A DNA stretch of 64,000 nucleotides from Promethearchaeota archaeon. Its GTDB lineage: Archaea; Asgardarchaeota; Lokiarchaeia; Sigyniarchaeales; SOKP01. The stretch spans positions 22,699 to 86,698 of the forward strand of contig JBHLOI010000010.1 of the NCBI GenBank assembly GCA_048940645.1, given 5' to 3'. Position numbers and translations under genes: made by a program. This document shows, piece after piece, positions 4,147-21,564 of this stretch (the stretch's first letter is position 1; each line of letters opens with the position of its first letter). Under the pieces are notes generated by a model. It searched no databases and was not told the DNA's origin. It was given only the letters and a program-made list of their open reading frames with translations.

Positions 4147-5517
4147 CTAATAAAATTCACAATCATTAAGCAGTTGTGAGATATCCATAACCTTTATGGG
4201 TGAATTGTCTTCAGTTGCAACTTCGAATAAATTATTTTTACAAAAAACACATGAACTGACAAGAACTTCAGCATTAGTTTCAACTGCTTCTTTTAAACGA
4301 TCTTCTCTTATTCTAACCATACAAGCACGAGTTTCGGATATTCTATCTCTACCTATCTCACCTGCTATCTCACCATATAGGGCTTTTACTCCACCTCCGG
4401 CTCCGCAACACCAAGACATGTCTTTATTATGTTTCATTTCAAATAATTTGACACCTTCGATCATATTTATGAGTTCTCTTGGTTCTTCAAAAACCCCACA
4501 ATATCTACCTAGATGGCATGGATCGTGATATGTAATAAGTAAAGGATCTTCTTTTGAACGCTTTTTATATCGAATTTTTAAATTCTTTTCTTTAACAGTT
4601 TTTAATACGAATTGTGTTAAGTGATAAAGGTCAAATTCAAGTTTTTGACCCGCATACTTAGTATATTCAAGTGTGAATGTGGAAAAACATCCAGAACAAG
4701 AAAATACGACTTCAGATACGCCGCTCTGTAGAATAATTTTGTAATTATGTTTTACAAGTTCGATGGCTTCATCTTCTAATCCAGTTCGAAATAATACTGA
4801 TCCACAACATTGTTCTTCAGGAAAAAGAACAAATTCCACACCAAGTTTGGCTAAAACTTGGCTTGTTGCAGTAACTAATTCTTTATTTCTATAAGAAGAA
4901 GTACACCCTACAAAATAACCAACCTTGCCTGGAATGGGCTTCTGACTTTCTAAATCTATGCTTGTTCTTATCGAATCCATTTCTTGTTTTGCTCGTTCAT
5001 ATGCTTCTTTTCCTTCTTCACAAGCATTGCACCAATTAAATCTATCTATGTGCTTTTCTAAAAAAGGATTATTATTTTCAATAATCGAATTTTTTAGAAT
5101 TTTTAATTTTGCAGGTACTGCTCCTTTCTTCACTACTTCTTTACGAAAATTTTGAAATACTTCCAATGTATCAATCCCAACAGGGCATACGACTCTACAA
5201 TTACCACATAGCATACAACGAAAAACAGAAGGTATTATTTCCTCCTTATCAAATTTAATATCTTTATTATCTAATGCTTTAATAATTCTATTCCTTCCGC
5301 CAGCATAATCTGTTTCTGACCACGAAGTATTATATACCTTACAAACATGTCGACAATAGCCGCAATGTGTACACCGATCATATGAATATTTTTCTTTTGT
5401 TTTGCTCTTAGGTTCTATTAAGTTTTCTTTAGAAGGGGAAACTAAACCCGCAACAGGTGGACCAGTAGTAATTAAATTTTTCAAATCTTTTTTCTCTTTA
5501 CCTTCACTCATCTGCAT
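4147..5517 (-). CDS. Fe-S oxidoreductase with 2x[4Fe-4S] and two CCG domains (HdrD/GlpC/GlcF family)
   Basis: CTHCGYCRHVC, CMLCGNCRVVCP, YFVGC, EQCCGS, YHDPCHLGR, WCCGAGGG, SSCVFC. Confidence 0.9.
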   Translation of the reverse strand: MQMSEGKEKKDLKNLITTGPPVAGLVSPSKENLIEPKSKTKEKYSYDRCTHCGYCRHVCKVYNTSWSETDYAGGRNRIIKALDNKDIKFDKEEIIPSVFRCMLCGNCRVVCPVGIDTLEVFQNFRKEVVKKGAVPAKLKILKNSIIENNNPFLEKHIDRFNWCNACEEGKEAYERAKQEMDSIRTSIDLESQKPIPGKVGYFVGCTSSYRNKELVTATSQVLAKLGVEFVLFPEEQCCGSVLFRTGLEDEAIELVKHNYKIILQSGVSEVVFSCSGCFSTFTLEYTKYAGQKLEFDLYHLTQFVLKTVKEKNLKIRYKKRSKEDPLLITYHDPCHLGRYCGVFEEPRELINMIEGVKLFEMKHNKDMSWCCGAGGGVKALYGEIAGEIGRDRISETRACMVRIREDRLKEAVETNAEVLVSSCVFCKNNLFEVATEDNSPIKVMDISQLLNDCEFY

Positions 5518-5643: not shown

Positions 5644-7149
5644 TCATAAAATTTTATATAATAATTTAGCAGTATTAAAGAGCAAAGAAATTCTCCAGAA
5701 TTTTAATCTAGAATCAACTATACGATAGGAGTTAAATAAATCCTTTGGATCTAATTTATTTTTTAAAATTTTTCTTTTAGCAACAATTTCGGGTTTGTAT
5801 TTTAATAAATAAAAAGTATTCACAATTCCTATTGTATATACACGATCCCCTTGATTAAAAGCTTGTATTGAAAGATCGTGTAAAAATGCTTTAACAGTGA
5901 AAAATTCTCTGGGTTTAACTATATCAGATAACCCGAAAACTTTTATTCTACTATATCCTTTTATTCCCGCGATTGTATATAGAGCTGTTGGAAATTTATA
6001 CTTTTTACTTTCTTTAAGATATCTTTCAAAAAACTTATTTAACCTCTGATCAGAAATCCAATATTCTTGAAATAACAAATTTCTTGTTGAACGTCCGATA
6101 GATACTTCAGCATCACTAATATCTCGCCATTTTTCTTTTAAATATACTTTATCTACTTCAATCCCTCCTAAATTTAAAGCAATAGTTTCAGAAGCTGATA
6201 AATTTTGAGAAGTAATTTCAGGATCATCATAAAATACAGCCCAAACTAGCCAATCTTGTTCTGGAAAATTTATATGAGAATATTTTTCAAATTTACGCTC
6301 TGAAATCGAAATAAAAAATGGCTTATTTGTAAATTGATCTTTAAGATTTCTATAAAAGTCAATTGCATTTTGGTATGAAGAAAAACCATATCCAATTATT
6401 TCCAAGGAAGTTTTAAGAGTTGTAAGAGATAATTCGACTTCTGCAATAGCACCATAAATCCCATAAGTCCCAACAATATCATCCAGAGAGATTTCTCCTT
6501 TAGAATTTTTGGAAATTTCCATTATTCTTCCATCAGGAAGGACTATTTTTAAACTCAGAATCGAGTCTTCCATGGATCCATATTTTGGTACTCCTATTCC
6601 AGCAGTTCCAGGAGTTGATATAAAACCACCAACACAAGAGGTCTTAAAACTTGTAGGGTAACATTTGGGTGCAAGACCATAATCAGCAAGTTTTTCAATT
6701 AAATTTAGCCATGAAATACCAGTTCCTACTTTAACTGTCATATTATTTTTGTCAATATTATGAATTTTGTTTAATCTGCGGGTATCTATTATTAAACCTC
6801 CTTTTGAAGGAGTTGCTGAAGAAAAACATGATGTACCTGCAGCTCTTACTGTTATTGGGATTTTTCGCTCATTACACTTTTTTATTAATAGAGAAAGACT
6901 TGTGATATCTGCGGGACGGGCTATTAAATTTGCAAGATAATTTTTTTTAAATTTATAATGATATGAAGGTAACGATGTGAGATCAGCAGATGCAGATTCA
7001 AGTTCATAAGGATTTGAACTAACGTGATAAGGAGATATAAATTCTTTTATAACTTCTTCAAAATTTTGGCTGGGTTTTTTTTTCTTTACATTTGGTGAGT
7101 TTATAATATTAGATTCACTCTCTGAATTTTTATTATTGATTCCATTCAA
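5644..7149 (-). CDS. FAD-binding oxidoreductase (GlcD / D-lactate dehydrogenase-like)
   Basis: PITVRAAGTS, SCVGGFIST, DIVGTYGIYGAI and C-terminal LDPKDLFN; upstream of the CCG protein on the same strand. Confidence 0.8.
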   Translation of the reverse strand: MNGINNKNSESESNIINSPNVKKKKPSQNFEEVIKEFISPYHVSSNPYELESASADLTSLPSYHYKFKKNYLANLIARPADITSLSLLIKKCNERKIPITVRAAGTSCFSSATPSKGGLIIDTRRLNKIHNIDKNNMTVKVGTGISWLNLIEKLADYGLAPKCYPTSFKTSCVGGFISTPGTAGIGVPKYGSMEDSILSLKIVLPDGRIMEISKNSKGEISLDDIVGTYGIYGAIAEVELSLTTLKTSLEIIGYGFSSYQNAIDFYRNLKDQFTNKPFFISISERKFEKYSHINFPEQDWLVWAVFYDDPEITSQNLSASETIALNLGGIEVDKVYLKEKWRDISDAEVSIGRSTRNLLFQEYWISDQRLNKFFERYLKESKKYKFPTALYTIAGIKGYSRIKVFGLSDIVKPREFFTVKAFLHDLSIQAFNQGDRVYTIGIVNTFYLLKYKPEIVAKRKILKNKLDPKDLFNSYRIVDSRLKFWRISLLFNTAKLLYKIL

Positions 7150-7174: not shown

Positions 7175-8032
7175 TTATGACACCATTAAAAAACCTGAAA
7201 AAAAGGCAATCCACCAACAAGCTAAAGTAATATATCCTGTTAACTTAGCATATTTACGTTCAGCTGCAATTCCAAACAACATACTTAAAAATCCTGCAAG
7301 TAATCCAACTCCACCTAATATTATATGAGACCAGTGTATTCCTGTAGAAAATGAAGTCCAGATTAATGGATCAAAAATTACTAACGATATAACATTGATT
7401 AGGGTTAAAACCCATGAAAGTCCGGCAAAAATACCATGAATTTTAACAAATTTATTTTCATTAACTAGTACTAGAACTGTTCCAATAGATAATAAAAGTA
7501 AAGCTGATAAACCAATGTACATTTCAAAATGATTAAATATTTCTAGCTTTGGGGGTGTTGGACCAATACCCCCTATACTAAATCCAATTTCTATATAATC
7601 GAAAGGAGGTGGACTACCAGAAACAGAATCGTCTCCAGCAATGATAAGAATTATATAATATCCATCTTGAGTAGGAGTTGTAATATTAAAAACAACTGTC
7701 ATTGCATTAGAAGTTGGATTTATATCATCACCAGATCCATCTAATATTCTATTTGTGGTAGGGAGAATACTAAACTGGTTATTCTCTTTGGCATCAGCAG
7801 GCGCCTGAATAAATAAGTTGGGACCAGTAGCTGTAACATTAAAAATAATAACCGTTGAAGCATTTACCGCATTTGATGTGCTTATGTTAGTACCAATTGA
7901 ATAAGCTCCCGGTACTGTGTGGCAATCTTCATGAGGCTGGGTATTGCTAGGAAATGCATTCACGTTAAAAAGAACTGATATAAATAGAGTACCGAGAAAT
8001 ATAGAAATTATTAAGATAATTTTTTTTTTCAA
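7175..8032 (-). CDS. Exported HxxCH-domain protein fused to a 4-TM cytochrome b561-like membrane domain
   Basis: Signal peptide ending VNA-FPS, HEDCH (7919-7933), a beta-rich domain, then four hydrophobic helices with His in NHFE, KIHG and WSHIILG. Confidence 0.7.
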   Translation of the reverse strand: MKKKIILIISIFLGTLFISVLFNVNAFPSNTQPHEDCHTVPGAYSIGTNISTSNAVNASTVIIFNVTATGPNLFIQAPADAKENNQFSILPTTNRILDGSGDDINPTSNAMTVVFNITTPTQDGYYIILIIAGDDSVSGSPPPFDYIEIGFSIGGIGPTPPKLEIFNHFEMYIGLSALLLLSIGTVLVLVNENKFVKIHGIFAGLSWVLTLINVISLVIFDPLIWTSFSTGIHWSHIILGGVGLLAGFLSMLFGIAAERKYAKLTGYITLACWWIAFFSGFLMVS

Positions 8033-8224
8033 GATTCTTACCAGATTAATGAATATTTAAGTAATAAATGATGAAATCTTATTATTAAAATTTTTACTTA
8101 AAAATTATTAGTAGATATAAAGTTTTGATGTAAAAATGGCATCTAAATTTTAACTAAAAATTATTAAGATTACAAAGAAAGATTTTTAAAAATCTTTTTT
8201 AATTTTAGAAATTTAGGTTTTTTA

Positions 8225-9934
8225 ATGAAATTTAACAAAGATTCATTGAAAACGATTATTATACTTGATTGTGTGATAATTATAATTTTTGTCATAGTTA
8301 TTCCTAACTTATTAAATCTAGTTGGATTAGATTTAAAAATTCAAGTATTATCTAATCTAGCAAATTATCTAATTTTAACAACTATAATAATAACTGCCCT
8401 TGATTTAATCTTTTTGACATTAAAGAAAGAGAATTACTTTTATTTGGCATCTTTCAATATGTCACTTTCAATTTCAGTATTTCTACTTCTTGAATATTGT
8501 TTTGTAAATGATTATTATAATTTTTTATATGTTTGGAGTTATAGTAAATCAACTTTACCATTTATTTATAAACTTGTAGCTATTTGGGCAGGGGAAGCGG
8601 GTTCTATTATGACATGGATGGTATTTAACTCAATAGTTATTTTTTTTTATAGGATTAAAAACCAAAATAAAGAAGATATTGTTTTTATCCGTTCAGTTAT
8701 TATATTATTAATTATTTCAATATTTTTTCTAATAATTTTATTTTATTTGAATCCTTTTGAATTTAGTTTAGCACCTGTTTCTGATGGGTCAGGTTTAAAT
8801 CCTCTTTTAATATCTCCATTTATGATTTGGCATCCACTTTTTACCTTTATAGCTTATGCTATTTTTTTGATTCCATTTACAATAACTATAGCTGAAATGG
8901 TTTCAAAAGATTCAAAACTATTAAATTCATATCAAACTAACTTTTATGACTTTTCTTTAAAATTTGGATGGTTAGTTCTGACACTAAGCATTGGACTAGG
9001 AGCTTATTGGGCAAAAATTGCATTATTACCATGGGGGCGATATTGGGGTTGGGATCCCGTAGAAACTGTTTCGCTTATCCCTTGGTTTTTTATCACAGCA
9101 TTTTTTCATACAAGACTTTTTAAAAAGAAAAATCCAAATTTAATAAAAATAAACGTAACTTTGATTTTTTTTGCAATTATTTTCTCTACATTAATTACTC
9201 GAGGCGGAGGCTTAACTTCTCTTCATGCGTTTACAGGAAAAGCAGGGCTAGTAATCTGGGTCTTAATTGTTGGTTTAATATTAATATCTCTTTCTCTTTA
9301 CACAATTTACATAATATTAGATTATATCCTAGAAGAATATAGGAAAATTAACCTTCTCTTCGATTATTTAAGTTATTTATTTTTATTTGCGTTATCAATT
9401 GTGTGTATCATCGGACTTTTGGTGCCACCCTTCACTAATTTACTTTCTACTTTTTTGCCCATTGACACAGTAACTATAGGCGTGGACTACTTTATTATAG
9501 GTACCTCTATATTAGCCATCGGTTTGGCATTAACATTAACATTTTGTTCTTTGAGAGAATTTTTCAAGATTAAATTGATATTTTTATTGATACTTATCAT
9601 TGTAGCAATTCAATCCGCTTTATCATTAGTTTTAGGATTTTTATTAGATTTATGGATAAATCCTTTAATAATGATATATTTCATTGCGTTGTTTTCTTCT
9701 TTATTCAAATTAGTTAAAAATATCAATTTTAAAAGGGGAATTAAACAATTCTTTAGAATAAATTCAAAAACAATAATTCATGCAGGATTATCATTTATTT
9801 TAATAGGTACTTCAGTTGATCCTAGTATATGGGTTTTTCAAGATATTTTCTTTATCACAGGCTTTATATTTTTATTGAGTGGTATAATTCCTTCAACATT
9901 TATCTTATTTTTTATTAAAAAAATGAAATCTTGA
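8225..9934 (+). CDS. ccmF: Cytochrome c biogenesis heme lyase CcmF
   Basis: WAGEAGS, GLNPLL..WHP, WWD domain WGRYWGWDPVE, AFFH, TRGGGLTSLHAF, IIHAG; polytopic membrane protein. Confidence 0.93.
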   Translation: MKFNKDSLKTIIILDCVIIIIFVIVIPNLLNLVGLDLKIQVLSNLANYLILTTIIITALDLIFLTLKKENYFYLASFNMSLSISVFLLLEYCFVNDYYNFLYVWSYSKSTLPFIYKLVAIWAGEAGSIMTWMVFNSIVIFFYRIKNQNKEDIVFIRSVIILLIISIFFLIILFYLNPFEFSLAPVSDGSGLNPLLISPFMIWHPLFTFIAYAIFLIPFTITIAEMVSKDSKLLNSYQTNFYDFSLKFGWLVLTLSIGLGAYWAKIALLPWGRYWGWDPVETVSLIPWFFITAFFHTRLFKKKNPNLIKINVTLIFFAIIFSTLITRGGGLTSLHAFTGKAGLVIWVLIVGLILISLSLYTIYIILDYILEEYRKINLLFDYLSYLFLFALSIVCIIGLLVPPFTNLLSTFLPIDTVTIGVDYFIIGTSILAIGLALTLTFCSLREFFKIKLIFLLILIIVAIQSALSLVLGFLLDLWINPLIMIYFIALFSSLFKLVKNINFKRGIKQFFRINSKTIIHAGLSFILIGTSVDPSIWVFQDIFFITGFIFLLSGIIPSTFILFFIKKMKS

Positions 9935-10176
9935 AAGGAAAACTACTATGAAGGTTCATTTGAAACAAATCTTTCATTTTGAAACTGAAACGATCAAAAT
10001 AGGCAGAAATTGAAAATAAAACTTGTTTGATTGTTTAAAATAACCAATTTTAGCAAATTTTATAAATTTTTTGAGATTTCCATAAATAAAGCAAGGTTAT
10101 AACATATTAAGCTTATACTTATATACTAAAAATCTATATCAAAAATATATTTTAAATTTACATAAGGGGATTCTTA

Positions 10177-13038
10177 ATGAAGGTAAATAAAAAAGTTTCA
10201 TCTCTATTAATTACTGCTATATTATTCTTATCAATTATTGGGATTGCTATAGCTTACACCTCAGATTTTACTGATTTTTCTGGAGAGGGGCATAATAGTT
10301 GTCATGGAGATATAACACAAAGTGCTTCAGGATACATCTCATTATCATCAAGCTCAGGAACAACCGTGAATCCAAGTGAAACATTTACAATTAGCATTCA
10401 AGTCCTAAGCTTCACAGAGGCTCAAGGAAAGAATATTGAAACAGGCTTCCCAAGTGGAACACCTGGGAGAGGAGATAATAAAGATTTTACTTTTGATGCG
10501 ATTCAAAAATCAGCATCCATAGACAGCTCTGGAAATTCAATAACGATTGACTTTCAAGCTACAGCTCCGACAATTGAACAAACCTATACTCTCACTGCTG
10601 ATGCTATCTATCGAGAGGGGAGTTCTGCTTCATATTTTGCAACCGGAAATTTAATAATAACAGTTGAACCAATAAATACTCCACCTCAATTTAATAATCT
10701 AATTGAGAGTGCTGACCCATTAGAATTAGGGCAGCAAGAAAATATTCAAATAGATGTAACTGATTCTGAGTCAAGCGTTAGCGATGTTCTCATTGAATTA
10801 GAAAATATAAATTACACCATGTCAAACATTTTAGGAAACACATATGAATATAATTGGACTCCGAATACAATAGGTATAAAAAACTATATAATTTTTGCTA
10901 ATGATACAGAGGGAAGTTGGAATAAAGTTAGTGGAAATATTAACGTAATTGATATTACAGCTCCAATATTATCTAATCTAGTTGAAAGTGCTGACCCATT
11001 GGAATTAGGACAAACAGAAGTAATACAGATTAATGCTACTGATTTATCAGGAATTAGTCAAGTGTTAATAGAAATTGGTGGCGTGAATTATACTATGGTG
11101 AATATAGGAGGACCAATATGGGAATATAACAGCTGGACACCAACTAGCACAGGTTTAAAACCGTATATAATTTACGCTAATGATACAGAAGGAAATTGGA
11201 ATTCGTTAAATGATGATGTCACTGTAGATGACACAATAGCACCCAAATATTCTAATTTAATTGAAAATGCTGATCCACTTCCATTAGGGCAAAATGAAAC
11301 GATTTCAATTGAAATTTATGATTCACCGGGGTCTGGAGTGAAAGAAGTACTTATTGAATATGATGGTTCTAATCACACAATGATTTTTATTGGATTTAAT
11401 ACATGGAGGTGGTCTAATTGGAAGCCTATGTCTGTAGGAATCTTCAATTATTTCATTTATATGGTAGATAACAGCAACAATGTAAATATAACAGGAGGAT
11501 CTATTGAAGTCATTATCTCAACAGGACCAACAATTCAAAACTTATCAAAAAGTGCTGATCCTTTAGAATTAGGGAAGTTAGAAACGATTCAAGTTGACGT
11601 TGATGATACTAATGGAGTGAGCAATGTATTTATTGAAATTGGGGGATTAAATTATTCAATGGTGAATATTGGGGGAATAAGATATGAATTTACCTGGAAA
11701 CCAAATTCTACTGGAATAAAATTATTTAAGATTTATGCTAATGATTCTTTAAATAATTGGAATCAATTTGGAAATAGTATTTTCGTCCAAGATACAAAAC
11801 CTCCAAATTTTGGAAATTTAACAGAAAGTAGCGATCCAGTTGAATTAGGAGCTCCAATAACGATTTCTATTGACACAACTGACTTGTCAGGTATTAACCA
11901 AGTCAAAATTGAATTTGAAGGTGTGAATCATTCAATGTCTTATACCGGAGGAAATACATGGTTAAATGATACTTTGATATTTAGTACTGTTGATATTCAT
12001 TTATATACCATTTATATTCAAGATAATTCTAACAACTGGAATACGACAAATGGTTTTATCGAAGTAATCGATACAACACCACCTGTATTGACAAATTTAT
12101 ATGAAAGCAGTGATCCTTTAGAATTAGGACAAATTGAAGTAATTCAGATTGATATAATTGATTTAGCTCCAATAAATACAGTATTAATTGAATTTGAAGG
12201 AAAAAATTATACCATGGTAAAAATAAGCAGCTTAACCTGGGAGTACAACTGGGTTCCAACTAGCACTGGATTAAAATTATATACAATTTATGCTAACGAT
12301 ACAAGCAATAATTGGATCTCGTTAGTTGCTAATATTTCTGTGGTGGATACTAATGGTCCAGTCTTATCTGCTTTATATGAGAGTGCTGATCAACTAGAAT
12401 TAGGACAAACAGAGACAATTCAAATCAATGTTTCTGATCCATCAGGAATTAATCAAGTGGTAATAGAAATTGGTGGTGAAAATTATACAATGCAAAATAT
12501 CGGAGGATCAAAATGGGAATATAGTTGGGCTCCAAATAGTACAGGATTGAAGCTATATACTCTTTATGCATATGACTCGATAAATAATACGGTTTCATTG
12601 AAAAATAATATTACTGTTATAGATACAACAGGACCAATTTTTTCTAATTTGGTTAAAAGCAAGGCATCAATACTTTTAGGTGAATCTGTATCTATTCAAA
12701 TTGAAGTTGTGGATATATCTGGTGTTAGCGAAGTTCTTATTGAATTTAGTGGCTCAAATCATACTTTGATAAATACCGAAGGAAATACTTGGGAGTATAC
12801 TGATTGGTTCCCAAGTTCAATAGGTGAAAACTCTTTTACTATTCATGCCAAAGATAATCTTAATAATTGGAATACGGTAATTGGGAATATTTTAGTAACT
12901 GAGCAATCAGTAGGCAGTAATTTATTAACGATGAGAGAAATATTAGATATAACATTGTTTTCAAGTATATTTGGTATTACTATTTTCATAGCAATATTAA
13001 TAATAAGAACAGCAAGGAATAAACGATTTATTCAATAA
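10177..13038 (+). CDS. Large surface protein: signal peptide, HxxCH domain, 8 Ig-like repeats, C-terminal TM anchor
   Basis: AIA-YTS cleavage site, HNSCH (10291-10305), eight ~93-aa repeats with ESADPLELG...YTIYANDT..NW, many NxS/T sequons, C-terminal TM plus basic tail. Confidence 0.85.
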   Translation: MKVNKKVSSLLITAILFLSIIGIAIAYTSDFTDFSGEGHNSCHGDITQSASGYISLSSSSGTTVNPSETFTISIQVLSFTEAQGKNIETGFPSGTPGRGDNKDFTFDAIQKSASIDSSGNSITIDFQATAPTIEQTYTLTADAIYREGSSASYFATGNLIITVEPINTPPQFNNLIESADPLELGQQENIQIDVTDSESSVSDVLIELENINYTMSNILGNTYEYNWTPNTIGIKNYIIFANDTEGSWNKVSGNINVIDITAPILSNLVESADPLELGQTEVIQINATDLSGISQVLIEIGGVNYTMVNIGGPIWEYNSWTPTSTGLKPYIIYANDTEGNWNSLNDDVTVDDTIAPKYSNLIENADPLPLGQNETISIEIYDSPGSGVKEVLIEYDGSNHTMIFIGFNTWRWSNWKPMSVGIFNYFIYMVDNSNNVNITGGSIEVIISTGPTIQNLSKSADPLELGKLETIQVDVDDTNGVSNVFIEIGGLNYSMVNIGGIRYEFTWKPNSTGIKLFKIYANDSLNNWNQFGNSIFVQDTKPPNFGNLTESSDPVELGAPITISIDTTDLSGINQVKIEFEGVNHSMSYTGGNTWLNDTLIFSTVDIHLYTIYIQDNSNNWNTTNGFIEVIDTTPPVLTNLYESSDPLELGQIEVIQIDIIDLAPINTVLIEFEGKNYTMVKISSLTWEYNWVPTSTGLKLYTIYANDTSNNWISLVANISVVDTNGPVLSALYESADQLELGQTETIQINVSDPSGINQVVIEIGGENYTMQNIGGSKWEYSWAPNSTGLKLYTLYAYDSINNTVSLKNNITVIDTTGPIFSNLVKSKASILLGESVSIQIEVVDISGVSEVLIEFSGSNHTLINTEGNTWEYTDWFPSSIGENSFTIHAKDNLNNWNTVIGNILVTEQSVGSNLLTMREILDITLFSSIFGITIFIAILIIRTARNKRFIQ
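10675..12900 (+). repeat. Eight diverged ~279-bp tandem coding repeats (Ig-like beta-sandwich stalk)
   Basis: Recurring GAAAGTGCTGACCCATTAGAATTAGG-like DNA and the DTTxP..NL.ESADPLELGQ peptide, eight times. Confidence 0.85.
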
Positions 13039-13110
13039 ATAATTATTTTTTTTACTTTTTAATCACTTCTCTTTATTAGGTATCATTAATTTTTCAGAAA
13101 GTTAGATAAT

Positions 13111-13824
13111 ATGATTAAATCCAATAAAAATATAATAAATTGTAATACTGTTTCTAAACAATTTGGATATTTCTTTGCACTTAAAAAAGTTTCTTTTAGT
13201 GTTAAACAATATACGATATTCGGAATTGCGGGACCAAACGGAGCCGGAAAAACAACGTTAATTAAAATCTTATCTGGATTACTAAAGCCAACTTTAGGAA
13301 ATATTGAAATTGATGGAATGAATTATGATGATCACTCAAATATAATAAGACAAAACATCGGTATTACTACTGATGAATCATTTCTCTATGAAGAACTAAC
13401 TATTTTTGAAAATTTAAAATTCTATAATAATTTACATTTAAATTTTGAAAAGAGCAACATAAAGAATAAGATTGAGCGACTTGCTAGAAAATTCAATTTA
13501 GAAGACTGGGTAAATGAACCCATAAGTATATTGTCCCATGGAATGAAAAAAAAAGTAGAATTAATACGAGCTTTAATACATCAACCATCAGTTTTATTTT
13601 TGGATGAACCATTTTCAGGATTAGACTACCACACAACCAATATGCTGATCAACTTTTTTAAAGAATTAAAAGAATATGAGAAGGTTTCGATAATTCTGAC
13701 ATCTCATAAAATGGATCTATTCCAAAAGATTTGTGATGAGTTAATTATTTTAGAAAAAGGAAAAATTGTTAAATCCATTTCAAAAGAAGATTTTGATGAA
13801 TTCGAAATTGAATCATACTTTTAA
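13111..13824 (+). CDS. ccmA: Heme exporter ABC ATPase CcmA
   Basis: Walker A GPNGAGKT, signature LSHGMKKK, LDEPFSGLD; adjacent to ccmB in the ccm cluster. Confidence 0.82.
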   Translation: MIKSNKNIINCNTVSKQFGYFFALKKVSFSVKQYTIFGIAGPNGAGKTTLIKILSGLLKPTLGNIEIDGMNYDDHSNIIRQNIGITTDESFLYEELTIFENLKFYNNLHLNFEKSNIKNKIERLARKFNLEDWVNEPISILSHGMKKKVELIRALIHQPSVLFLDEPFSGLDYHTTNMLINFFKELKEYEKVSIILTSHKMDLFQKICDELIILEKGKIVKSISKEDFDEFEIESYF

Positions 13825-13836
13825 GGTGATAAATAA

Positions 13837-14562
13837 TTGAATCATGAAAAAAATACATTAAAATTGAGATTGAAGTTATTGAAAACAATTTTATTTAAAG
13901 ATATTAAATCTGAAATTAGACAAATAAATGATTTGTTTTCGGTTTTTCTTTTTGTTATAATAGCAACTTTTATTTTTTCATCTGTGTATAATTTTAGCAC
14001 GCAATATCAAAATATGCCATTAGAGATTTTTGTAATTGAAAACTGGTTGATAATGTTTTTTACCCTTATTTATATTATGACTAAGCTATTTATTAAGGAA
14101 AAAGATTCTGGAACGCTTGGTGGAATACTTTCGTCTCCTGTCTCTACTAGCATAATTCTTTTAGGTAAAATCTTATTTTGTTTGATTTTATTAAGTTTTG
14201 TAGAAATAATTCTATTTATTTTTAGTTTTTTTATATCTGCGCCCTCAATTGGTAATTTAAACTTAATTCAGCTATTAATCTATATTGCTCTGGGAGTATT
14301 ATTACCTACATTTGACTTATCTATTTGTGGAAGTCTTGTTTCCGCTTTTTCGATGTATGCTAAAAATAAGTCTTTTGTTCTGCCTATTTTATTATTCCCT
14401 TTAATTCTACCAATTACCATACCTATAATATCTATAAATATTAAACTATTAGAGGGAAATTTAATTTTTAATCTATATTACGAAATAATATTTTTAATAG
14501 CTCATATTACTCTAATGATTTCAATATTGACATTAATTTCTCAAACTCTCTTATATGACTAA
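13837..14562 (+). CDS. ccmB: Heme exporter permease CcmB
   Basis: KDIKSEIR, FIKEKDSGTLGGILSSP, LGK, VLPILLFPLILP; about 6 TM helices. Confidence 0.88.
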   Translation: MNHEKNTLKLRLKLLKTILFKDIKSEIRQINDLFSVFLFVIIATFIFSSVYNFSTQYQNMPLEIFVIENWLIMFFTLIYIMTKLFIKEKDSGTLGGILSSPVSTSIILLGKILFCLILLSFVEIILFIFSFFISAPSIGNLNLIQLLIYIALGVLLPTFDLSICGSLVSAFSMYAKNKSFVLPILLFPLILPITIPIISINIKLLEGNLIFNLYYEIIFLIAHITLMISILTLISQTLLYD

Positions 14563-14569
14563 AGTTATA

Positions 14570-14908
14570 TCAACTACACTGTGTAAGAATCTGATTTGCA
14601 ACCAAAATTAAAGAAGAATTGAATACACCTTTTACAACTACTTTTATGTCATTCTTAAAATCACTAGGAGGAGTAATCTGACTTATATCAACTAAAATAC
14701 TATCCTCATTCTCAGTTAAATTAAAATTCCCATTGGAATATCCCTGTACTATTCCGATTACTTGAATTTCTTTATTATAGTATTCAGAGGGATTTGATAC
14801 AACTTGAGAAACCTGAAGATAAGGTCGAGAGTATATTGTTACCAATGCAATTATTATACCTAGGGATATAACTATCCCTACGATTGCAAAAATTTTAGAT
14901 TTCTTCAA
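14570..14908 (-). CDS. ccmE: Heme chaperone CcmE, Cys-type, C-terminally truncated
   Basis: N-terminal TM, OB-fold pattern (YLQVSQV, IQVIGIV, PSDFKNDIKVVVKG, ANQILTQCS*). The Cys lies at the CxxxY/HxxxY position, but the protein ends one residue later. Confidence 0.85.
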   Translation of the reverse strand: MKKSKIFAIVGIVISLGIIIALVTIYSRPYLQVSQVVSNPSEYYNKEIQVIGIVQGYSNGNFNLTENEDSILVDISQITPPSDFKNDIKVVVKGVFNSSLILVANQILTQCS

Positions 14909-14918
14909 ATTCTCACAC

Positions 14919-15071
14919 CTAAGTAGTGTTTCTTTCTAAATTCTTAATTCTTTTTAAAGTTTTTCTTAATCGAAGTTTAGGATATAAGATTAAAATTAAA
15001 ATCACAATCCAAAATAATGTAAAACTAATGCTTATAGTTATTAAATCTGATTTTAGATAATGTTCTGACAT
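14919..15071 (-). CDS. ccmD: CcmD-like small membrane protein (50 aa, not in ORF track)
   Basis: MSEHYLKSDLITISISFTLFWIVILILILYPKLRLRKTLKRIKNLERNTT*: one TM plus basic tail, GAGGAG SD upstream, located between ccmC and ccmE. Confidence 0.8.
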   Translation of the reverse strand: MSEHYLKSDLITISISFTLFWIVILILILYPKLRLRKTLKRIKNLERNTT

Positions 15072-15076
15072 ATAAT

Positions 15077-15814
15077 TTACTCCTCTACTAATCTTTTTTG
15101 TATAAGTTTCTCTAATTCTTCTTTTGCTTTATCTAAATTTACTAATTTATGAACAACGTATATAAACAGAATTGTCATAGCTATTAAATTAAAGAATAAC
15201 ATAAATAATTTTAATGGATCCCAATAAATATTTCCCGGTTGACCTGGATTTGGACTAATTAATGGATGTAAACTGGTAAATATTATTGCTGAGATGTAGC
15301 TTAAAGGAACTGTGGGAAATAAAGCGATCGCTAGTGCTGATGTCAATTTTGCTTTTTTATCTTTATCTTCAATCACACTCCAAAAAATCAAATAAGATAA
15401 ATAAGAAAGAAATAATACTAAAGTCATTGTTTGTCGAGCATCACTCCACTGCCAATAAATATTATTATAATCTCCAGAAGTGGCATTAAACCATAGAGAA
15501 CCAGTTATTAATGTAAAAGCAGTAAAAAATACTCCAACTATTATACTATTCTTACCCAAACGACTCCAATATATTTTCTTAATTCTTAAATATAAAATAT
15601 GACATACTAAACTAATACCAAATGAAAGATACGCAAGCCATGCCCCAGACACATGGTAAAAAAAAATTGCGTATACAATTCGATTAGGGTCTCCCCATAA
15701 GATTAAATTAAAGGAAGATAGTCCAATTATCAAGGATAAATTTACCAATAGCATTATAATTGAAATTATTAACAGCAGATTAGTTCTAAGCAATCTTATT
15801 AAAACTATAATCAT
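15077..15814 (-). CDS. ccmC: Heme exporter / CcmE-loading protein CcmC
   Basis: FFYHVSGAW, TGSLW...YWQWSDARQT (WWD-like with insertion), TSLHP. Confidence 0.9.
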   Translation of the reverse strand: MIIVLIRLLRTNLLLIISIIMLLVNLSLIIGLSSFNLILWGDPNRIVYAIFFYHVSGAWLAYLSFGISLVCHILYLRIKKIYWSRLGKNSIIVGVFFTAFTLITGSLWFNATSGDYNNIYWQWSDARQTMTLVLFLSYLSYLIFWSVIEDKDKKAKLTSALAIALFPTVPLSYISAIIFTSLHPLISPNPGQPGNIYWDPLKLFMLFFNLIAMTILFIYVVHKLVNLDKAKEELEKLIQKRLVEE

Positions 15815-16064
15815 CGCCTCATCAAAGCATAACTATAAATTATTTTCTTATTCAATGAAATCTGTAAGCTTTTGTAGAATTAGGAAAATTATATTTAACA
15901 TTTAAGACATTATTTTTTTTAATTTAAAATTTGATATTATAAAAAAAAAGTAATAGATTCTTTAGATTTTATTAGTTTTTATTATTTTTTTCTATGTTTG
16001 GCTTCATAATAGTATGTTCTATATATTTTAGAAAAATAAAAAAAAAGAAACATTAAATTTTGAT

Positions 16065-16703
16065 TTATTTAGGAGCTTTATGTTTTTTACGGCGTACAAT
16101 TATTATTATTGAAGTAGTTACTGCTATGAATACACCAAACAAGGTATAAAGTTCAAAACCAGGAATGGCTCCACCGCTGACAGTTAAAGTTAAAGTGTCT
16201 GTAGCATAAATTATACCCAATTCACTTCCATCTGTATGATTTTCAGCAGTAATAACATCAACGACTAGATTATAATCACCGTTTGTGAATGGAGCTATTA
16301 GTTTAAAAGAAATCGAAACATTTGAATCTCCATTACTATCCAAGGTTATACCATGTAATCTTATAGGATCCTCTAGAATAGACCCAAATACTGCATTATT
16401 CCCACGAGTAGAGGGAACCGCTACACTTACTTCACTATTTCTATCTATTGTTAAAGCTTCAGTAAAATTTTCAATTACTACATTTACTGTAAATTGTTGC
16501 CCTGCAGTCAATGACGTACCTTCCACAGAAGTGACAGTTACTGTTGCGCCAACGCTCTGAGTAGTGGGGCTTACAAGACCATGGCATCCACCATGCGAAC
16601 CACCAGCAAAAGTTTCAATCATAGAGGGAAATGCAACTGCTCCTCCGACTAATAACAAAAGAAAACTAGCAATTATAAAAAGAGGTATTATTTTTCTTTT
16701 CAT
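16065..16703 (-). CDS. Exported HxxCH-domain protein with PGF-type (Loki-CTERM-like) sorting signal
   Basis: AVA-FPS cleavage site, HGGCH (16581-16595), beta-rich domain alignable to the 10177 N-domain (TQS..TS(L/V)..(Q/T)FT(V/I)..(N/S)FTEA..PS..RGNN/RGDN..F...AP), tail AIPGF-TM-RRKK. Confidence 0.85.
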   Translation of the reverse strand: MKRKIIPLFIIASFLLLLVGGAVAFPSMIETFAGGSHGGCHGLVSPTTQSVGATVTVTSVEGTSLTAGQQFTVNVVIENFTEALTIDRNSEVSVAVPSTRGNNAVFGSILEDPIRLHGITLDSNGDSNVSISFKLIAPFTNGDYNLVVDVITAENHTDGSELGIIYATDTLTLTVSGGAIPGFELYTLFGVFIAVTTSIIIIVRRKKHKAPK

Positions 16704-17169: not shown

Positions 17170-17733
17170 ATGCAATTAGATAATATAGATAGACAAATAT
17201 TAAACGCATTGTTTAAAAATGGTCGTGAGAGCTTAACAAACTTGGAGAAGGTTATAATTAAATCTGATACAGATACTATGAGTCATACAGGAATTGCCAA
17301 ACGGATAACGAAATTAGAAGAAAGCGGAGTTCTTAAGGTTCAAGCTAATACAAATATAAATAAACTTCAATATAAAGTTTTATTCTTATTAATGGAAATG
17401 AGTAATTTTGAAGAAGTGCAAAATATTATTAAAGCTTATCAAGATTGCCCTAGAGTTTTTTTGTTGGCCCCCGTAACTGGACAATATAATTTAATTTTAG
17501 GAATAATAGGGCAAAATCTCGATGTTTTACATCGATATTTGAATTATTGCGGACCAACTAATAAAAAAGGAATTTTGCATTCCGCAACGATCTTTGCATC
17601 AGAATTTATTAAACCTAATTACATTCCTCTTAATTTATTCAGTCGGGAAAGCCAAGAAGATAAATGTGGAAATATTTGCAAAGAATGTGCAGCATATCTT
17701 GATGGGAAATGCTATGGTTGCGGAAATTTTTAG
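17170..17733 (+). CDS. Lrp/AsnC family transcriptional regulator with C-terminal Cys cluster
   Basis: LDNIDRQILNAL..GRES, RITKLEESGV HTH, VTGQYNL RAM domain, tail CGNICKECAAYLDGKCYGCG. Confidence 0.88.
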   Translation: MQLDNIDRQILNALFKNGRESLTNLEKVIIKSDTDTMSHTGIAKRITKLEESGVLKVQANTNINKLQYKVLFLLMEMSNFEEVQNIIKAYQDCPRVFLLAPVTGQYNLILGIIGQNLDVLHRYLNYCGPTNKKGILHSATIFASEFIKPNYIPLNLFSRESQEDKCGNICKECAAYLDGKCYGCGNF

Positions 17734-18127: not shown

Positions 18128-19447
18128 ATGGCAGTAAAAGTTGCTTTTATGCAATGTTCTGATTGCTGGGGCTGTCACCAGAGCCTACTTAATGCTCATT
18201 TAGGCTTATTACCAGTACTCCCAGCATTAGATATTGTATATTGGCCAGCAGTAGTAGATTTTAAACATGATTCATTGAAATCGAGGCCTGACGGAGATAT
18301 TTTAGTTGGATTTGTAGAAGGAAGCTTTAGAACTAATGAAGATATTGAAAATGCAAAACTAATGAGACAAAAATGCCAATTAATTATCTCATTTGGAAGT
18401 TGCTCATGTTATGGAAATGTTCATGGCTTAGCAAATCAATGGGATATTCAAGAACTCATCAAAAGAAAATTCAAGGACGCTGAATCAATTACCAACAAAG
18501 ATGAGGCTGGTGAACCTCAAAAACATGTTCCTGGGTTTACTGATAAAATAGTACCCTTAGATGAAATTATAAAGGTAGATGCCTATATTTCTGGTTGTCC
18601 GCCAAAACCAGAAGCAATTATTAGCTCTGTACAATTTTTACTTGGTCAAAAACCCCAACCTAAAGCAGAGAGGGCATTTTGTAATGATTGTATCTTGAGA
18701 GAAAGTGGATGTTTATTAGAAAAAAATACATTATGTTTTGGACCAATCACTAGTACAGGATGTTCATTAAAATGTACAAGTGATGGTAAACCTTGCGTTG
18801 GTTGTTTAGGACCATCTACTTCAGTAGATGCGAGAGTTAATAAGCTTGGCGATATGATTAAAAATATCGATTCCCTTAGTTCTGGAGACAAGAAGAACTT
18901 GTATGAATTTCTTGCTCTCTTCTTAAACATTCCATTAATGGCAGGATTTGATCTAGCTGGAGATATTCTAAAACAAATTAAAAAGAGTGGCACTCCTCAA
19001 ACTCCTTTAGCAGGAATGCCTGATGAAACAACCAATATTGCTTCGAATATAATGGCCTATTTAAAAGATCACCGAGAATTCACAGAAATTTCAAACGTAT
19101 GCGACACTTGTCCAAGAATTATTGGAAGTAAGTCTCAGATGACAAGAGTAAAGAGAGATTATGAAGGGTTACCTAATATGGATGATTGCTTTATTGAGCA
19201 AGGTTATCTTTGTGCGGGTCCAATTACTAAAGCTGGCTGTGGTGGTTTATGCATACGGGTCAATACTCCTTGTTCTGGTTGTTTTGGTCAAACAGAATGG
19301 AAAATTGATCAGGCAGAAAGATTTGCTGAAGTAGCAACAAAAGGCTTCAATGTGGCTTTATCAAAAGATGAACTTCTTTCCCAAATTAAGGATAAGATTG
19401 GTTTTACTGAAAAGTTCACATTAGCAGCTAATAAAAAATATAGGTAG
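18128..19447 (+). CDS. mvhG: F420-non-reducing hydrogenase small subunit (MvhG/VhuG), extended
   Basis: CSDCWGC, VEGS, FGSCSCYG, ISGCPP, and two copies of the CxxC...C..GPIT..GC...C.....C.GC module. Confidence 0.9.
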   Translation: MAVKVAFMQCSDCWGCHQSLLNAHLGLLPVLPALDIVYWPAVVDFKHDSLKSRPDGDILVGFVEGSFRTNEDIENAKLMRQKCQLIISFGSCSCYGNVHGLANQWDIQELIKRKFKDAESITNKDEAGEPQKHVPGFTDKIVPLDEIIKVDAYISGCPPKPEAIISSVQFLLGQKPQPKAERAFCNDCILRESGCLLEKNTLCFGPITSTGCSLKCTSDGKPCVGCLGPSTSVDARVNKLGDMIKNIDSLSSGDKKNLYEFLALFLNIPLMAGFDLAGDILKQIKKSGTPQTPLAGMPDETTNIASNIMAYLKDHREFTEISNVCDTCPRIIGSKSQMTRVKRDYEGLPNMDDCFIEQGYLCAGPITKAGCGGLCIRVNTPCSGCFGQTEWKIDQAERFAEVATKGFNVALSKDELLSQIKDKIGFTEKFTLAANKKYR

Positions 19448-19459
19448 GTGAAATTAAAA

Positions 19460-20764
19460 ATGGTAAAAGAAATTGAAGTAGAACCTGTCACTCGATTAGA
19501 GGGGCATGGAGGATTAAGATTAGTATTAGGTGATGATGGAAAAGTTCAAGATGTACAATTTAATATCACTTCTACAAGATTTTTTGAAAAATTTTTAGAA
19601 GGTCGTTATTGCGAACACATTCCAAGAATAACACCAAGAATTTGCGGAATTTGCCCAATCCCACATCATTTAGCTCCAACAAAAGCAGTAGAAGATGCGT
19701 GGGGAGTTGAAATTCCTACTCCGGCATATAAATTAAGACAATTATTAATTAATGCTAAACAATATAGTTCTCATGCATTACATTTCTATGCTCTTGCGGC
19801 ACCAGATTTTTTACTTGGTCCATTTGCTGATCCTGCGTTACGGAATGTTGTTCACGTAATCAGCCAAATGCCTGATGTTGGAGCAATGGCGTTAAAGATG
19901 ATGGATTTTGGACAGAAATTATGTGCTGCTATTGGAGGTAAATCAGTTCATCCTATTTCAGCAATTGTAGGTGGAATGAAGAAGGCATTGGATGAAGATG
20001 TTCGCAATCAATTTATAAAACAAATTGATGACCAAGTAGAATGGACTAAGAAGACTGTTGATATTGGCCTTAAAGTTGTTGAAGATTATTGGGATGTAGT
20101 AGCAAACGTAGGTGTTGTACCAACATACTATGCTGGAATGACTAAAAATGGTATTCATGACATATATGAAGGAGATCTTAGAATAGTCACTCCTGATGGT
20201 AAGAAAATCGATTATGATTTCCACGATTATTTAGATGCTTTAGGTGAACATATACCTAAACATTCTTATGCAACTCACATGTATTATAAACCTGCTGGCT
20301 ATCCTGAAGGTATATATCGCGCAAATACATTAGCAATGATTAACGCAGCAGATAAAATGGCTACACCATTAGCAGATGAAGCATTACAAGCTATGAGGTC
20401 AAAAGTAGGTCAAATATCACATCACACCTTTGCTTATCACTGGGCACGCTTGATTGAATTAGTTGAATCAATAGAAATGATAGCAACGTTACTTAAAGAT
20501 CCAGATATCGTGAATCCAGATTGTAAAACCTTAGATGTACAACCTAGGGAAGCCGAAGGAGTTGGTTTGGTTGAAGCTCCACGAGGTTTGTTATTATACC
20601 ATATATTTTCAGATGCAGATGGACTTTGTAAGAAAGCAAATCTATTAGTTGCTACAAACCATAATATCGCTGGAATAGAAAAGACATTAATGCATGTTGC
20701 AAAGCAAGTATTTGAAGACAACGCATTAGATGGATTAAAATTACCAGACCCCTGGATTAAATAA
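19460..20764 (+). CDS. mvhA: F420-non-reducing hydrogenase large subunit (MvhA/VhuA) lacking the C-terminal Ni-binding motif
   Basis: EPVTRLEGHG, L1 motif RICGICPIPH, EAPRGLLLYH, VATNHN; no DPCxxCxxH at the C-terminus. ATG 19460 preferred over GTG 19448 because AGGTGA precedes it. Confidence 0.93.
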   Translation: MVKEIEVEPVTRLEGHGGLRLVLGDDGKVQDVQFNITSTRFFEKFLEGRYCEHIPRITPRICGICPIPHHLAPTKAVEDAWGVEIPTPAYKLRQLLINAKQYSSHALHFYALAAPDFLLGPFADPALRNVVHVISQMPDVGAMALKMMDFGQKLCAAIGGKSVHPISAIVGGMKKALDEDVRNQFIKQIDDQVEWTKKTVDIGLKVVEDYWDVVANVGVVPTYYAGMTKNGIHDIYEGDLRIVTPDGKKIDYDFHDYLDALGEHIPKHSYATHMYYKPAGYPEGIYRANTLAMINAADKMATPLADEALQAMRSKVGQISHHTFAYHWARLIELVESIEMIATLLKDPDIVNPDCKTLDVQPREAEGVGLVEAPRGLLLYHIFSDADGLCKKANLLVATNHNIAGIEKTLMHVAKQVFEDNALDGLKLPDPWIK

Positions 20765-20788
20765 AGGTAGAATTAAGGAGGAAAAAAA

Positions 20789-20941
20789 ATGAGTGAAGAT
20801 GTACCAGAAGGAGTAGTAAACCTTCTTGAAATGATAGTTAGATGTTTTGATTGCTGACTATCGTGTGCCGCACATATCACAGTTGTGAAAGAAAACGGCG
20901 AGGAGGTTTATTCTCGTAAATTGAATGTTGGCTTAGGATGA
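20789..20941 (+). CDS. vhuU: Selenocysteine-containing hydrogenase subunit VhuU (50 aa; TGA at 20855-20857 read as Sec)
   Basis: AAGGAGG SD then MSEDVPEGVVNLLEMIVRCFDC-U-LSCAAHITVVKENGEEVYSRKLNVGLG*. It supplies the L2 motif missing from MvhA, and the TGA falls at the Ni-ligand position. Not in the ORF track. Confidence 0.92.
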
Positions 20942-20977
20942 ATATCTAATAAAAATAATAGATTGGATATAACTGCC
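20930..20977 (+). promoter_or_regulatory. Candidate eukaryote-type SECIS element of vhuU
   Basis: AUGA (20938-41) ... GA (20966-67) core, AUCUA/UAGAU upper helix, AAAAA apical loop, GGC-UUA/UAA-GCC lower helix; folded by eye only. Confidence 0.5.
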
Positions 20978-21043
20978 CTTGCTCGGGTTAAAGCCAAAAA
21001 ATATATGAAATGATTTGAAAAAGATAGGATAGAGTGAGAAAAA

Positions 21044-21550: not shown

Positions 21551-21564
21551 AAGGAGGGATGTAA

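Follow-up and report, generated by a model that had tools for sequence, protein, structure and literature searches.

The closest described counterpart of the system reported here is the archaeal System I*, which comprises CcmABCEF with a CxxxY-type CcmE and no CcmH, as in Methanosarcina acetivorans and Desulfovibrio; CcmH is, in fact, absent from archaeal systems in general (PMC9084895). For c-type hemes that are naturally held by a single Cys, a precedent is found in the Euglenozoa (PMC8262978). In this work, we analyzed a stretch of 64,000 nucleotides (hereafter, the window) from contig JBHLOI010000010.1 of a Promethearchaeota archaeon, in which a set of ccm genes for cytochrome c maturation (region 7175-16703) is interleaved with the genes of three exported proteins that carry HxxCH instead of CxxCH. 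On comparative grounds, we regard it as probable that the three proteins are derived c-type cytochromes, which would hold heme by one thioether and be matured by a variant of System I. A search of the literature on Ccm and cytochromes of Asgard archaea or Lokiarchaeia, on HXXCH and on single-cysteine sites revealed no description of such a system, and an example of ccm that came up in PMC10849945 concerns a bacterial class, not Asgard archaea.

The motifs in question are HEDCH, at residues 34-38 of a 285-amino-acid (aa) protein (nucleotides 7919-7933), encoded by the first gene of the cluster region (7175-8032, reverse strand); HNSCH, at residues 39-43 of a 953-aa protein (10291-10305; gene at 10177-13038, forward strand); and HGGCH, at residues 37-41 of a 212-aa surface protein (16581-16595; gene at 16065-16703, reverse strand). 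Re-reading of the open reading frames (ORFs) returned the same motif sequences and coordinates as a first-pass annotation of the window, which had also placed the motifs within about 15 residues of the signal peptide cleavage site and had described their Cys as the only one in each ectodomain. We found the motifs 11 to 16 residues after the predicted site, and the motif Cys is indeed the sole Cys outside the membrane in each protein, the second Cys of the 285-aa protein being located within transmembrane helix (TM) 4. The signal peptides of all three are typical of Sec, with a K-rich n-region, a hydrophobic core and an A-x-A-like site. The three proteins are paralogues, with 24-31% identity over about 150 residues, so the motif was inherited and does not stand for three independent events. 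Orthologues at 70-75% identity come from metagenome-assembled genomes with the label Promethearchaeota (the Asgard phylum to which Lokiarchaeia belong) or Hodarchaeota.

The 285-aa protein consists of a signal peptide, HEDCH, an immunoglobulin-like (Ig-like) domain and four TM helices; its C37 and H38 are invariant among 25 orthologues, and its membrane part has conserved H168 (in NHF), H199 (KIHG) and H236 (SHIILG), which lie at both membrane faces. The Pfam scan and the fold search gave no family match for the four-helix domain; an AlphaFold2 (AF2) model of the protein (predicted local distance difference test, pLDDT, 82) matched only generic four-helix bundles at Z 9-11, among them cytochrome b562, cytochrome c' and STEAP1 (9.3), and since such matches are generic they speak neither for nor against a reading of this domain as b561-like. 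In the 953-aa protein, the signal peptide and HNSCH are followed by an Ig-like domain with the putative heme site, by eight Big_7-like repeats of about 93 aa (Pfam Big_7, 60.9 bits) starting at residues 180, 273, 366, 461, 553, 646, 738, and 830, and by a C-terminal TM anchor. In a genome of the same genus (G109, locus L018, 4675-4827), the orthologue of this giant protein was seen only as a 50-aa fragment with PPGASCHF, which may represent a broken gene or an assembly problem.

The 212-aa protein has a signal peptide, HGGCH, an Ig-like domain and a Loki-CTERM sorting signal at residues 180-209 (NCBIfam NF033507, 25.3 bits vs. a cut-off of 19.9). Its AF2 model is a beta sandwich with pLDDT 86, in which the N-terminal arm bearing the motif is less confident. 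A gene for archaeosortase H (ArtH) is found at 62010-63074 of the window on the reverse strand (NCBIfam NF041736, 322.9 bits vs. a cut-off of 200) and its product is likely the processing enzyme of the Loki-CTERM signal; with both in the same window, we propose that the 212-aa protein is modified at both ends, carrying heme at the N-terminal one and being anchored by the C-terminal one. An HGGCH domain was also seen in a different setting, fused to a Cys-rich region with 14 Cys whose source annotation is (Fe-S)-binding, in a 436-aa protein of a "Candidatus Hodarchaeota" (P0015, MFX0099613.1).

The maturation genes that are interleaved with these three are ccmF (8225-9934, forward strand; a short form of 569 aa; PF01578, 91.8 bits), ccmA for the ABC ATPase (13111-13824, forward; ABC_tran, 113.3 bits), ccmB (13837-14562, forward; PF03379, 32.9 bits vs. 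a cut-off of 24.9), ccmE (14570-14908, reverse; 112 aa; PF03100, 37.7 bits), an ORF for a CcmD-like small membrane protein (14919-15071, reverse; 50 aa), and ccmC (15077-15814, reverse; PF01578, 49.7 bits). The ORF coordinates and the Pfam and NCBIfam matches thus agree with the interleaved arrangement proposed in the first-pass annotation. Its assignments of CcmF, CcmA, CcmB, CcmE, and CcmC were upheld by these databases; that of CcmD falls below the curated cut-offs, with 21.3 bits vs. 25.6 in Pfam and 19 vs. 25.95 in NCBIfam. CcmC scores 75.1 bits with TIGR01191, under the cut-off of 186, and keeps a WWD-type motif, WQWSDAR, together with His54 and His183. In CcmF, which aligns to the Thermus thermophilus CcmF 6ZMQ with E 1.6e-25, the WWD motif WGRYWGWDPVET is retained and there are exactly four His, H203, H295, H334, and H519, at the positions of P-His1, TM-His1, P-His2, and TM-His2. 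The adjoining of ccmA and ccmB is kept in the related loci L001 and L004. Homologous CcmD-like membrane ORFs of 44-54 aa also separate ccmC from ccmE in ccm loci from at least three Asgard families (L004, 11561-11698; L005, 7919-8083; L007, 5296-5433; L013, 9588-9743), while ccmD has been reported to be uniformly absent from archaeal genomes (PMC9084895).

A profile built from the three N-terminal domains collected 112 representatives among 1.84 billion proteins, and 74 homologous domains were aligned, with a mean column identity of 17%. The only invariant columns of this alignment are the Cys and the His next to it. Upstream of this pair, a His stands at a spacing of two residues from the Cys in 33 of the 74 domains, of three in 15, of four in six and of five to six in three; in others the upstream residue is a Cys, at a spacing of two (a true CxxCH, six domains), one (CxCH, five) or four (Cx4CH, two), and four domains have neither. 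The family rule would then read (H/C)-x(1-6)-C-H, and an upstream His is not strictly required, as a few members lack any. The first-pass annotation had called H..CH fixed and had suggested a profile search to see if it is conserved and linked to ccm; the statement holds in the window and the linkage was found (see below), but across the family only C-H is invariant, with the His at spacings of 2 to 6 or with Cys in its place. Some relatives show two-Cys spacings that are unusual, namely CxCH (CGCH, CNCH), Cx4CH (CSASGCH, CGTTGCH) and Cx5CH (CDSLAGCH), in loci L033 (694-1546), L034 (486-1709), L035 (9838-10434), L016 (5744-6940), and L002 (10001-11893); to our knowledge, CxCH is not a familiar spacing among described cytochromes.

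Homologues with a true CxxCH at the same place occur in another Asgard family and, once, in a syntenic locus, where the orthologue of the 285-aa protein carries CGECH (L001); this argues that the site is a c-type heme-attachment site. The three proteins of the window thus lack the CxxCH by which c-type cytochromes are recognized, and are homologous to proteins that have it. Among catalogued families, the nearest is NF041895 ("choice-of-anchor V"), to which the 953-aa and 212-aa proteins score 33.6 and 21.3 bits against a cut-off of 42, with no match for the 285-aa protein; it weakly matches 25 of the 74 relatives at E<1e-3 (best 3.9e-10), and it rises above the cut-off in only one of 301 sampled genomes, in a protein with CGPSCH. 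We take the two families as related and did not assign the proteins of the window to NF041895, as they are under its cut-off and it is not centred on Asgard archaea. A likeness to the Reeler domain was a language-model lead only (scores 0.89 and 0.81); PF02014 gave no Pfam match at E<=0.1 for the three proteins and is not listed among the 25 families that match the 74 relatives most often. A Foldseek search of the PDB with the model of the N-terminal domain returned only generic Ig, MG, CARDB, and SoxYZ folds, none at E<=1e-3, and a wide structure search with the same model gave MG and Ig domains at Z of about 9.

We then asked how the domain is distributed with respect to ccm in a sample of 301 genomes of the phylum, in which CcmC/F was scored by PF01578. 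The domain occurs in 55 genomes and CcmC/F in 80, and 54 of the 55 domain-bearing genomes have both, the exception being a weak partial match, so the co-occurrence that the first-pass annotation had proposed to test was borne out. In the family of the window (f1), the same 14 of 68 genomes have both domain and ccm, eight of them in the genus of the window and six in a second genus, and the other 54 have neither. Kindred genomes are not independent, and we give the linkage as counts without statistics. The gene order of the cluster recurs in L004, in L001/L053 and in loci of 13 other genomes; the co-occurrence reflects inheritance of one physical module.

Other customers of the Ccm proteins were sought in a six-frame scan of the genome of the window, an assembly of 3.83 Mb in 126 contigs that is 89.6% complete, which yielded 5,839 ORFs of at least 60 aa. 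None of the 42 ORFs with CxxCH in this roughly 90% complete genome has a signal peptide or an exported-type N-terminal anchor; they are Hdr, Mvh, zinc-ribbon, and radical-SAM-like proteins. The earlier statement that the window holds no exported CxxCH protein is therefore correct and extends to the scan of the whole genome, the only one to which the scan was applied. The scan showed 29 HxxCH motifs, mostly in cytoplasmic CCG domains of Hdr-like proteins, and a signal peptide together with HxxCH in the first 45 residues was found only in the three proteins of the cluster. A search of 71 genomes from the GTDB family of the window for class I (PF13442) and multiheme (PF09699) cytochromes gave no match.

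The ccm and domain loci of 15 f1 genomes were compared with those of 13 genomes from another Asgard family (f9), and the substrates and the machinery differ together. The f1 domains have one Cys in 43 of 43 cases; 36 of them have a His at x2-x4, six have no His (LGCHP, LSCHP and others) and one lacks the CH dipeptide. The f9 domains have two Cys in every homologue examined (CxxCH, CxCH or Cx3-5CH). The CcmE of f1 has 112-116 aa and ends in QIL[TVI]QCS in the 15 genomes (QCST in one), and that of f9 has the canonical CPS[KR]Y (CPSKY) plus a tail. In the window, CcmE ends in QILTQCS followed by the stop codon, such that the heme-binding Cys111 (14576-14578) is the penultimate residue and both the Tyr of CxxxY and the tail are absent; the H/C-x3-Y signature of CcmE is, accordingly, not present. 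Public CcmE sequences, taken as representatives of clusters at 90% identity, end in QCS, QCSS or QCSN in 87 of 91 cases and have CxxxY in none of the 91, and these public sequences include some from the sediment metagenome of Loki's Castle. A recoded stop was ruled out: TGA, TAA, and TAG alternate between genomes and nothing is conserved beyond, so the stop is real.

In an alignment with the CcmF of four other Asgard families, the CcmF of f1 (563-593 aa) has one more helix at its N-terminus and is without the outer domain, about 110-130 aa in size, that would precede the last TM helix; this domain is present in the CcmF of f9 (684-698 aa) and also in families f20, f24, and f16. CcdA (PF02683) was not found in the genome of the window (about 90% complete) or in four of four genomes of its genus, gave one weak match in the second f1 genus, and is present in five of five f9 genomes. 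The ccm ORFs are intact in the 15 f1 genomes. Families f24 and f20 have a canonical CcmE and no member of the domain family. One-Cys substrates therefore go together with a CcmE truncated at QCS, a CcmF without the outer domain and no CcdA found. In f16, a different arrangement was observed: a CcmF-like gene lies beside those of two 330-aa CGECH proteins and of a thioredoxin-like protein with WCETC (L011, 1605-8896, genome G181), the same genomes also have domain members with a single Cys and no His (GVCHA and LGCHD; L046, 794-1756, and L047, 626-4327), and no CcmE was found by PF03100 in five genomes.

From these elements, the following mechanism can be proposed. Sec would export each protein, which would present one heme site at its mature N-terminus, packed on the Ig-like beta sandwich. 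CcmABC(D) would load heme, probably scavenged, onto Cys111 of a CcmE without the Tyr ligand, and CcmF, with its WWD motif and four His and without the C-terminal outer domain, would transfer it to the substrate. There, the invariant Cys would form a single thioether, the adjacent invariant His would be the proximal ligand of the iron, and the upstream His would have replaced the first Cys of an ancestral CxxCH; a one-Cys site would need no thiol-reducing CcdA. The interpretation of the three as Ccm-matured proteins with covalent heme, already put forward in the first-pass annotation, appears supported, as far as sequences can speak, by the CxxCH homologues, the linkage to ccm, the lack of exported CxxCH proteins, the intact heme-handling residues and a machinery remodelled in just the lineage with one-Cys substrates.

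It could also be that no heme is covalently bound, the Cys-His pair and the upstream His binding Cu, Zn or Fe, or heme non-covalently, while the ccm genes serve an unrecognized substrate or export heme, for instance for the four-helix membrane domain. H-x2-C-H is capable of chelating a metal, CcmE and CcmF are both non-canonical, no conserved distal ligand was found, and genes for heme synthesis appear to be missing: searches of the genome of the window for HemB, HemC, and AhbA/B gave no match, and HemB (PF00490) is present in 0 of 68 f1 genomes, with 1 of 76 in f9, 1 of 21 in f24 and 9 of 11 in f16. On the other hand, CcmF keeps all its catalytic residues in 15 genomes, and we know of no role of CcmF other than thioether formation. 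Genomes gain or lose the cluster and the domain as one, homologues have bona fide CxxCH, and the invariant pair is exactly the C-H that supplies the second thioether and the iron ligand; moreover, the genome of the window offered no other exported Cys-His or CxxCH candidate in the ORF scan. Binding of this non-covalent kind is, in our judgement, quite unlikely.

The genes next to the cluster bear on the function that covalent-heme proteins could have. The 285-aa protein gene opens a same-strand run that continues with a FAD_binding_4 flavoprotein gene (5644-7149, reverse strand; similar to GlcD and D-lactate dehydrogenase; PF01565, 115.2 bits) and ends with the gene of an HdrD-like iron-sulfur protein (4147-5517, reverse; two CCG domains, 106.7 bits, and Fer4_8, 46.1 bits), in the same order in L001 and L004. 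Orthologues of the flavoprotein gene that share at least 72% identity came only from genomes with the ccm and CH-domain cluster, beside a gene of the 285-aa type; a paralogue of about 50% identity is present elsewhere. This run, together with the conserved His at both membrane faces of the 285-aa protein, suggests an exchange of electrons between cytoplasm and surface through heme. The flavin adenine dinucleotide (FAD) dehydrogenase and the HdrD-like protein would give electrons to, or take them from, the cytoplasmic face of the four-helix His domain, and the outer heme domain of the 285-aa protein would exchange them with the heme domains of the anchored 212-aa protein and of the 953-aa protein, the latter at the tip of its stalk. 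We put forward such a path from cytoplasm to surface only tentatively, as a possibility that we rate at a little under even.

The same surface proteins might be thought of as receptors by which a heme auxotroph scavenges or senses heme, the 953-aa stalk fishing for external heme and the covalent chemistry being secondary. Heme auxotrophy is likely, a single site sits at the tip of an eight-repeat stalk, and Loki-CTERM with ArtH provides surface anchoring. Ccm, however, moves heme outwards and not inwards, the tight linkage to the FAD dehydrogenase, the HdrD-like protein and the four-helix His domain fits redox work better, and the f9 relatives are ordinary-looking CxxCH cytochromes, such that we consider a receptor function very improbable.

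Further genes surround the module. Directly downstream of the cluster, at 18128-22437 on the forward strand, are genes similar to MvhG and MvhA of NiFe hydrogenase and to HdrC and HdrB; the same hydrogenase and Hdr genes flank the cluster in L004, so the module sits within a hydrogenase-heterodisulfide reductase neighbourhood. Between the cluster and the hydrogenase genes lies a gene for an Lrp/AsnC-like regulator (17170-17733, forward) with a Cys-rich C-terminal tail, CGNICKECAAYLDGKCYGCGNF, which might regulate the module in response to redox state or metals. A 708-aa leucine-rich-repeat protein with a HEAT-like N-terminus is encoded just upstream of the module, at 1984-4110 on the forward strand (LRR_14, 162 bits).

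Several points weigh against our proposal of one-thioether cytochromes matured by a variant of System I. No genes for heme synthesis were found, so heme must be imported; HemB is lacking as well in f9, which has canonical CxxCH and Ccm, and for this reason heme synthesis does not discriminate between the readings. In fact, Ccm without tetrapyrrole synthesis seems to be common in Asgard archaea, implying heme scavenging. The domain shows no conserved Met, His or Lys as a candidate distal ligand in the 74-domain alignment, and the AF2 model of the 212-aa protein is least confident around the motif (pLDDT 65-74). The co-variation of substrates and machinery rests on essentially two clades and may be one evolutionary event. 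Moreover, the metagenomic locus L001/L053 combines an f1-type CcmF and a QCS-type CcmE with HSGCH, HTGCH, and Hx4CH proteins and the one CGECH orthologue, so that a truncated CcmE can coexist with one CxxCH substrate; either the remodelled machinery is compatible with a two-Cys site or the locus is an intermediate. A lone heme at the end of a long stalk is no wire, and the idea of an electron conduit is the weaker for it. Finally, System I of Escherichia coli is very inefficient with single-Cys substrates and comes to a halt at a covalent adduct of CcmE, heme and cytochrome (PMC3268396). A natural one-Cys system must then resolve this adduct; the loss of the Tyr and tail of CcmE, the loss of the CcmF domain and the new His of the substrate are candidates for doing so.

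The history of this His was examined in a maximum-likelihood tree of 71 domains, unrooted, from a short search and with SH-aLRT (Shimodaira-Hasegawa-like approximate likelihood ratio test) support only, in which two deep clades are separated with a support of 99. One clade joins the giant and small types of f1 with two-Cys proteins that come from f9 and from a metagenome; in the other, the f1 membrane-fusion type is nested among two-Cys proteins of f9. His-type proteins are thus found in both deep clades, each time alongside two-Cys members, which indicates at least two independent changes from Cys to His, with gene conversion between paralogues as an alternative. Each change takes two nucleotide substitutions (TGY to CAY), and its occurrence at least twice argues that the His was selected rather than merely tolerated.

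What the His might be selected for leads to a bolder reading, in which heme has two covalent links, the Cys thioether and a bond between a His nitrogen and a vinyl carbon, or in which the His, as a nucleophile or a base, frees the heme from its adduct with CcmE; in either case the His would take part in the chemistry of attachment, a linkage of a type new to cytochromes c. His-vinyl bonds have chemical precedents, in His117 of cyanobacterial GlbN and in His130 of bacterial holo-CcmE. In the 36 of 43 f1 domains mentioned above, the residue that replaces the first Cys is His and not Ala, Phe or Ser; its spacing varies from x2 to x4, as does that of the Cys in the sister family; and the repeated two-nucleotide change coincides with a CcmE that has lost its Tyr ligand and a CcmF that has lost its outer domain. 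As single-Cys substrates are trapped on the CcmE of E. coli (PMC3268396), something in the present system must resolve the adduct. Six f1 proteins and four representatives, however, have a single Cys with no His close by (LGCHP, LSCHP, AFCHG), the euglenozoan cytochromes work with a free vinyl, and sequence alone cannot show a bond; the His may also do no more than pack against the free vinyl. We thus regard a covalently linked or reactive His as unlikely, and find it equally doubtful that an Asgard lineage would have re-engineered System I for a new class of cytochrome c with a chemically active His at the position of the first Cys. A role of the extra His as a second axial ligand is sterically unlikely, given that it precedes the Cys by three residues on the proximal side, an argument that rests on the established geometry of CxxCH.

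CxxCH is the search key for cytochromes c, and with a lineage-wide switch to HxxCH surveys would score these Asgard archaea as cytochrome-free, hiding a dedicated maturation system and three or more candidate surface heme proteins. This has a bearing on models of syntrophy and electron disposal in Asgard archaea. For the biochemistry of Ccm, the locus offers a natural System I that apparently serves one-Cys substrates only and that differs in defined ways, in CcmE, CcmF, CcdA, and the substrate His, from a related two-Cys system of a sister family that can be used as its control; it thus becomes testable why a site should have two cysteines, which purposes the Tyr of CcmE and the outer domain of CcmF serve, and by what means CcmE gives up its heme. 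If the His were chemically active, some Lokiarchaeia-like members of the Asgard archaea, regarded as fermenters or syntrophs without cytochromes, would gain a heme route for electrons to the surface, and the system would be categorically new if a covalent or catalytic part of the His were shown.

Compared with known systems, the window resembles System I* in having CcmA, CcmB, CcmC, CcmE, and CcmF, in the Cys that is the heme residue of CcmE, in the absence of CcmH and CcmI, and in the conserved WWD motifs and His ligands of CcmC and CcmF. Unlike System I*, it has a CcmE that ends one residue past the Cys, without the Tyr of CxxxY, and a CcmF with one more helix at the N-terminus and no C-terminal outer domain; it also encodes a CcmD-like ORF, CcdA was not found, and the maturation genes are clustered with their substrates, which have one Cys. 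The HdrD-like protein, with its Fer4 and CCG domains, and the FAD_binding_4 protein beside His-bearing membrane helices recall HdrDE of Methanosarcina and dehydrogenases of the GlcD and LldEFG type; unlike in HdrDE, the membrane part is here a four-helix domain, with putative heme b binding, fused to an outer c-type heme domain.

Single Cys-vinyl or His-vinyl bonds have precedents in SfmD (a single thioether with HxnHxxxC; PMC8179489), GlbN, and CcmE, whose folds and motifs are unrelated to those of the window and whose heme is attached autocatalytically or by another route. With cytochrome f, the three proteins share a motif near a mature N-terminus whose first residue is aromatic, and a beta-sandwich domain after the motif. 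The matches to its structure were 2jxm_B (Z 7.3, 127 residues aligned, rank 21) and 4ogq_C (Z 7.0, rank 31), which align from the mature N-terminus with Z values of 7.0-7.3 that are within the background of Ig-like and beta-sandwich folds, and we take them as a lead only. Unlike the domain of the window, cytochrome f has CxxCH, and there is no sequence similarity between the two. The mitochondrial cytochromes c and c1 of Euglenozoa, with (A/F)xxCH, likewise have retained the second Cys and the His alone, so that one thioether is implied (PMC8262978); they are class I cytochromes matured by a non-Ccm system, whereas in the window the fold is an Ig-like sandwich, the replacement in the family is mostly His and the maturase is a variant of System I. 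The nearest relatives are the two-Cys Asgard homologues (L007, L008, L016, and L035-L052) and NF041895, which share the signal peptide, the aromatic-x-G, the heme motif and the beta sandwich; the Asgard homologues come in the same types, small anchored, of about 400 aa, and giant, in the same ccm neighbourhood, and, unlike the proteins of the window, they carry CxxCH, CxCH or Cx3-5CH together with canonical CcmE, CcmF, and CcdA.

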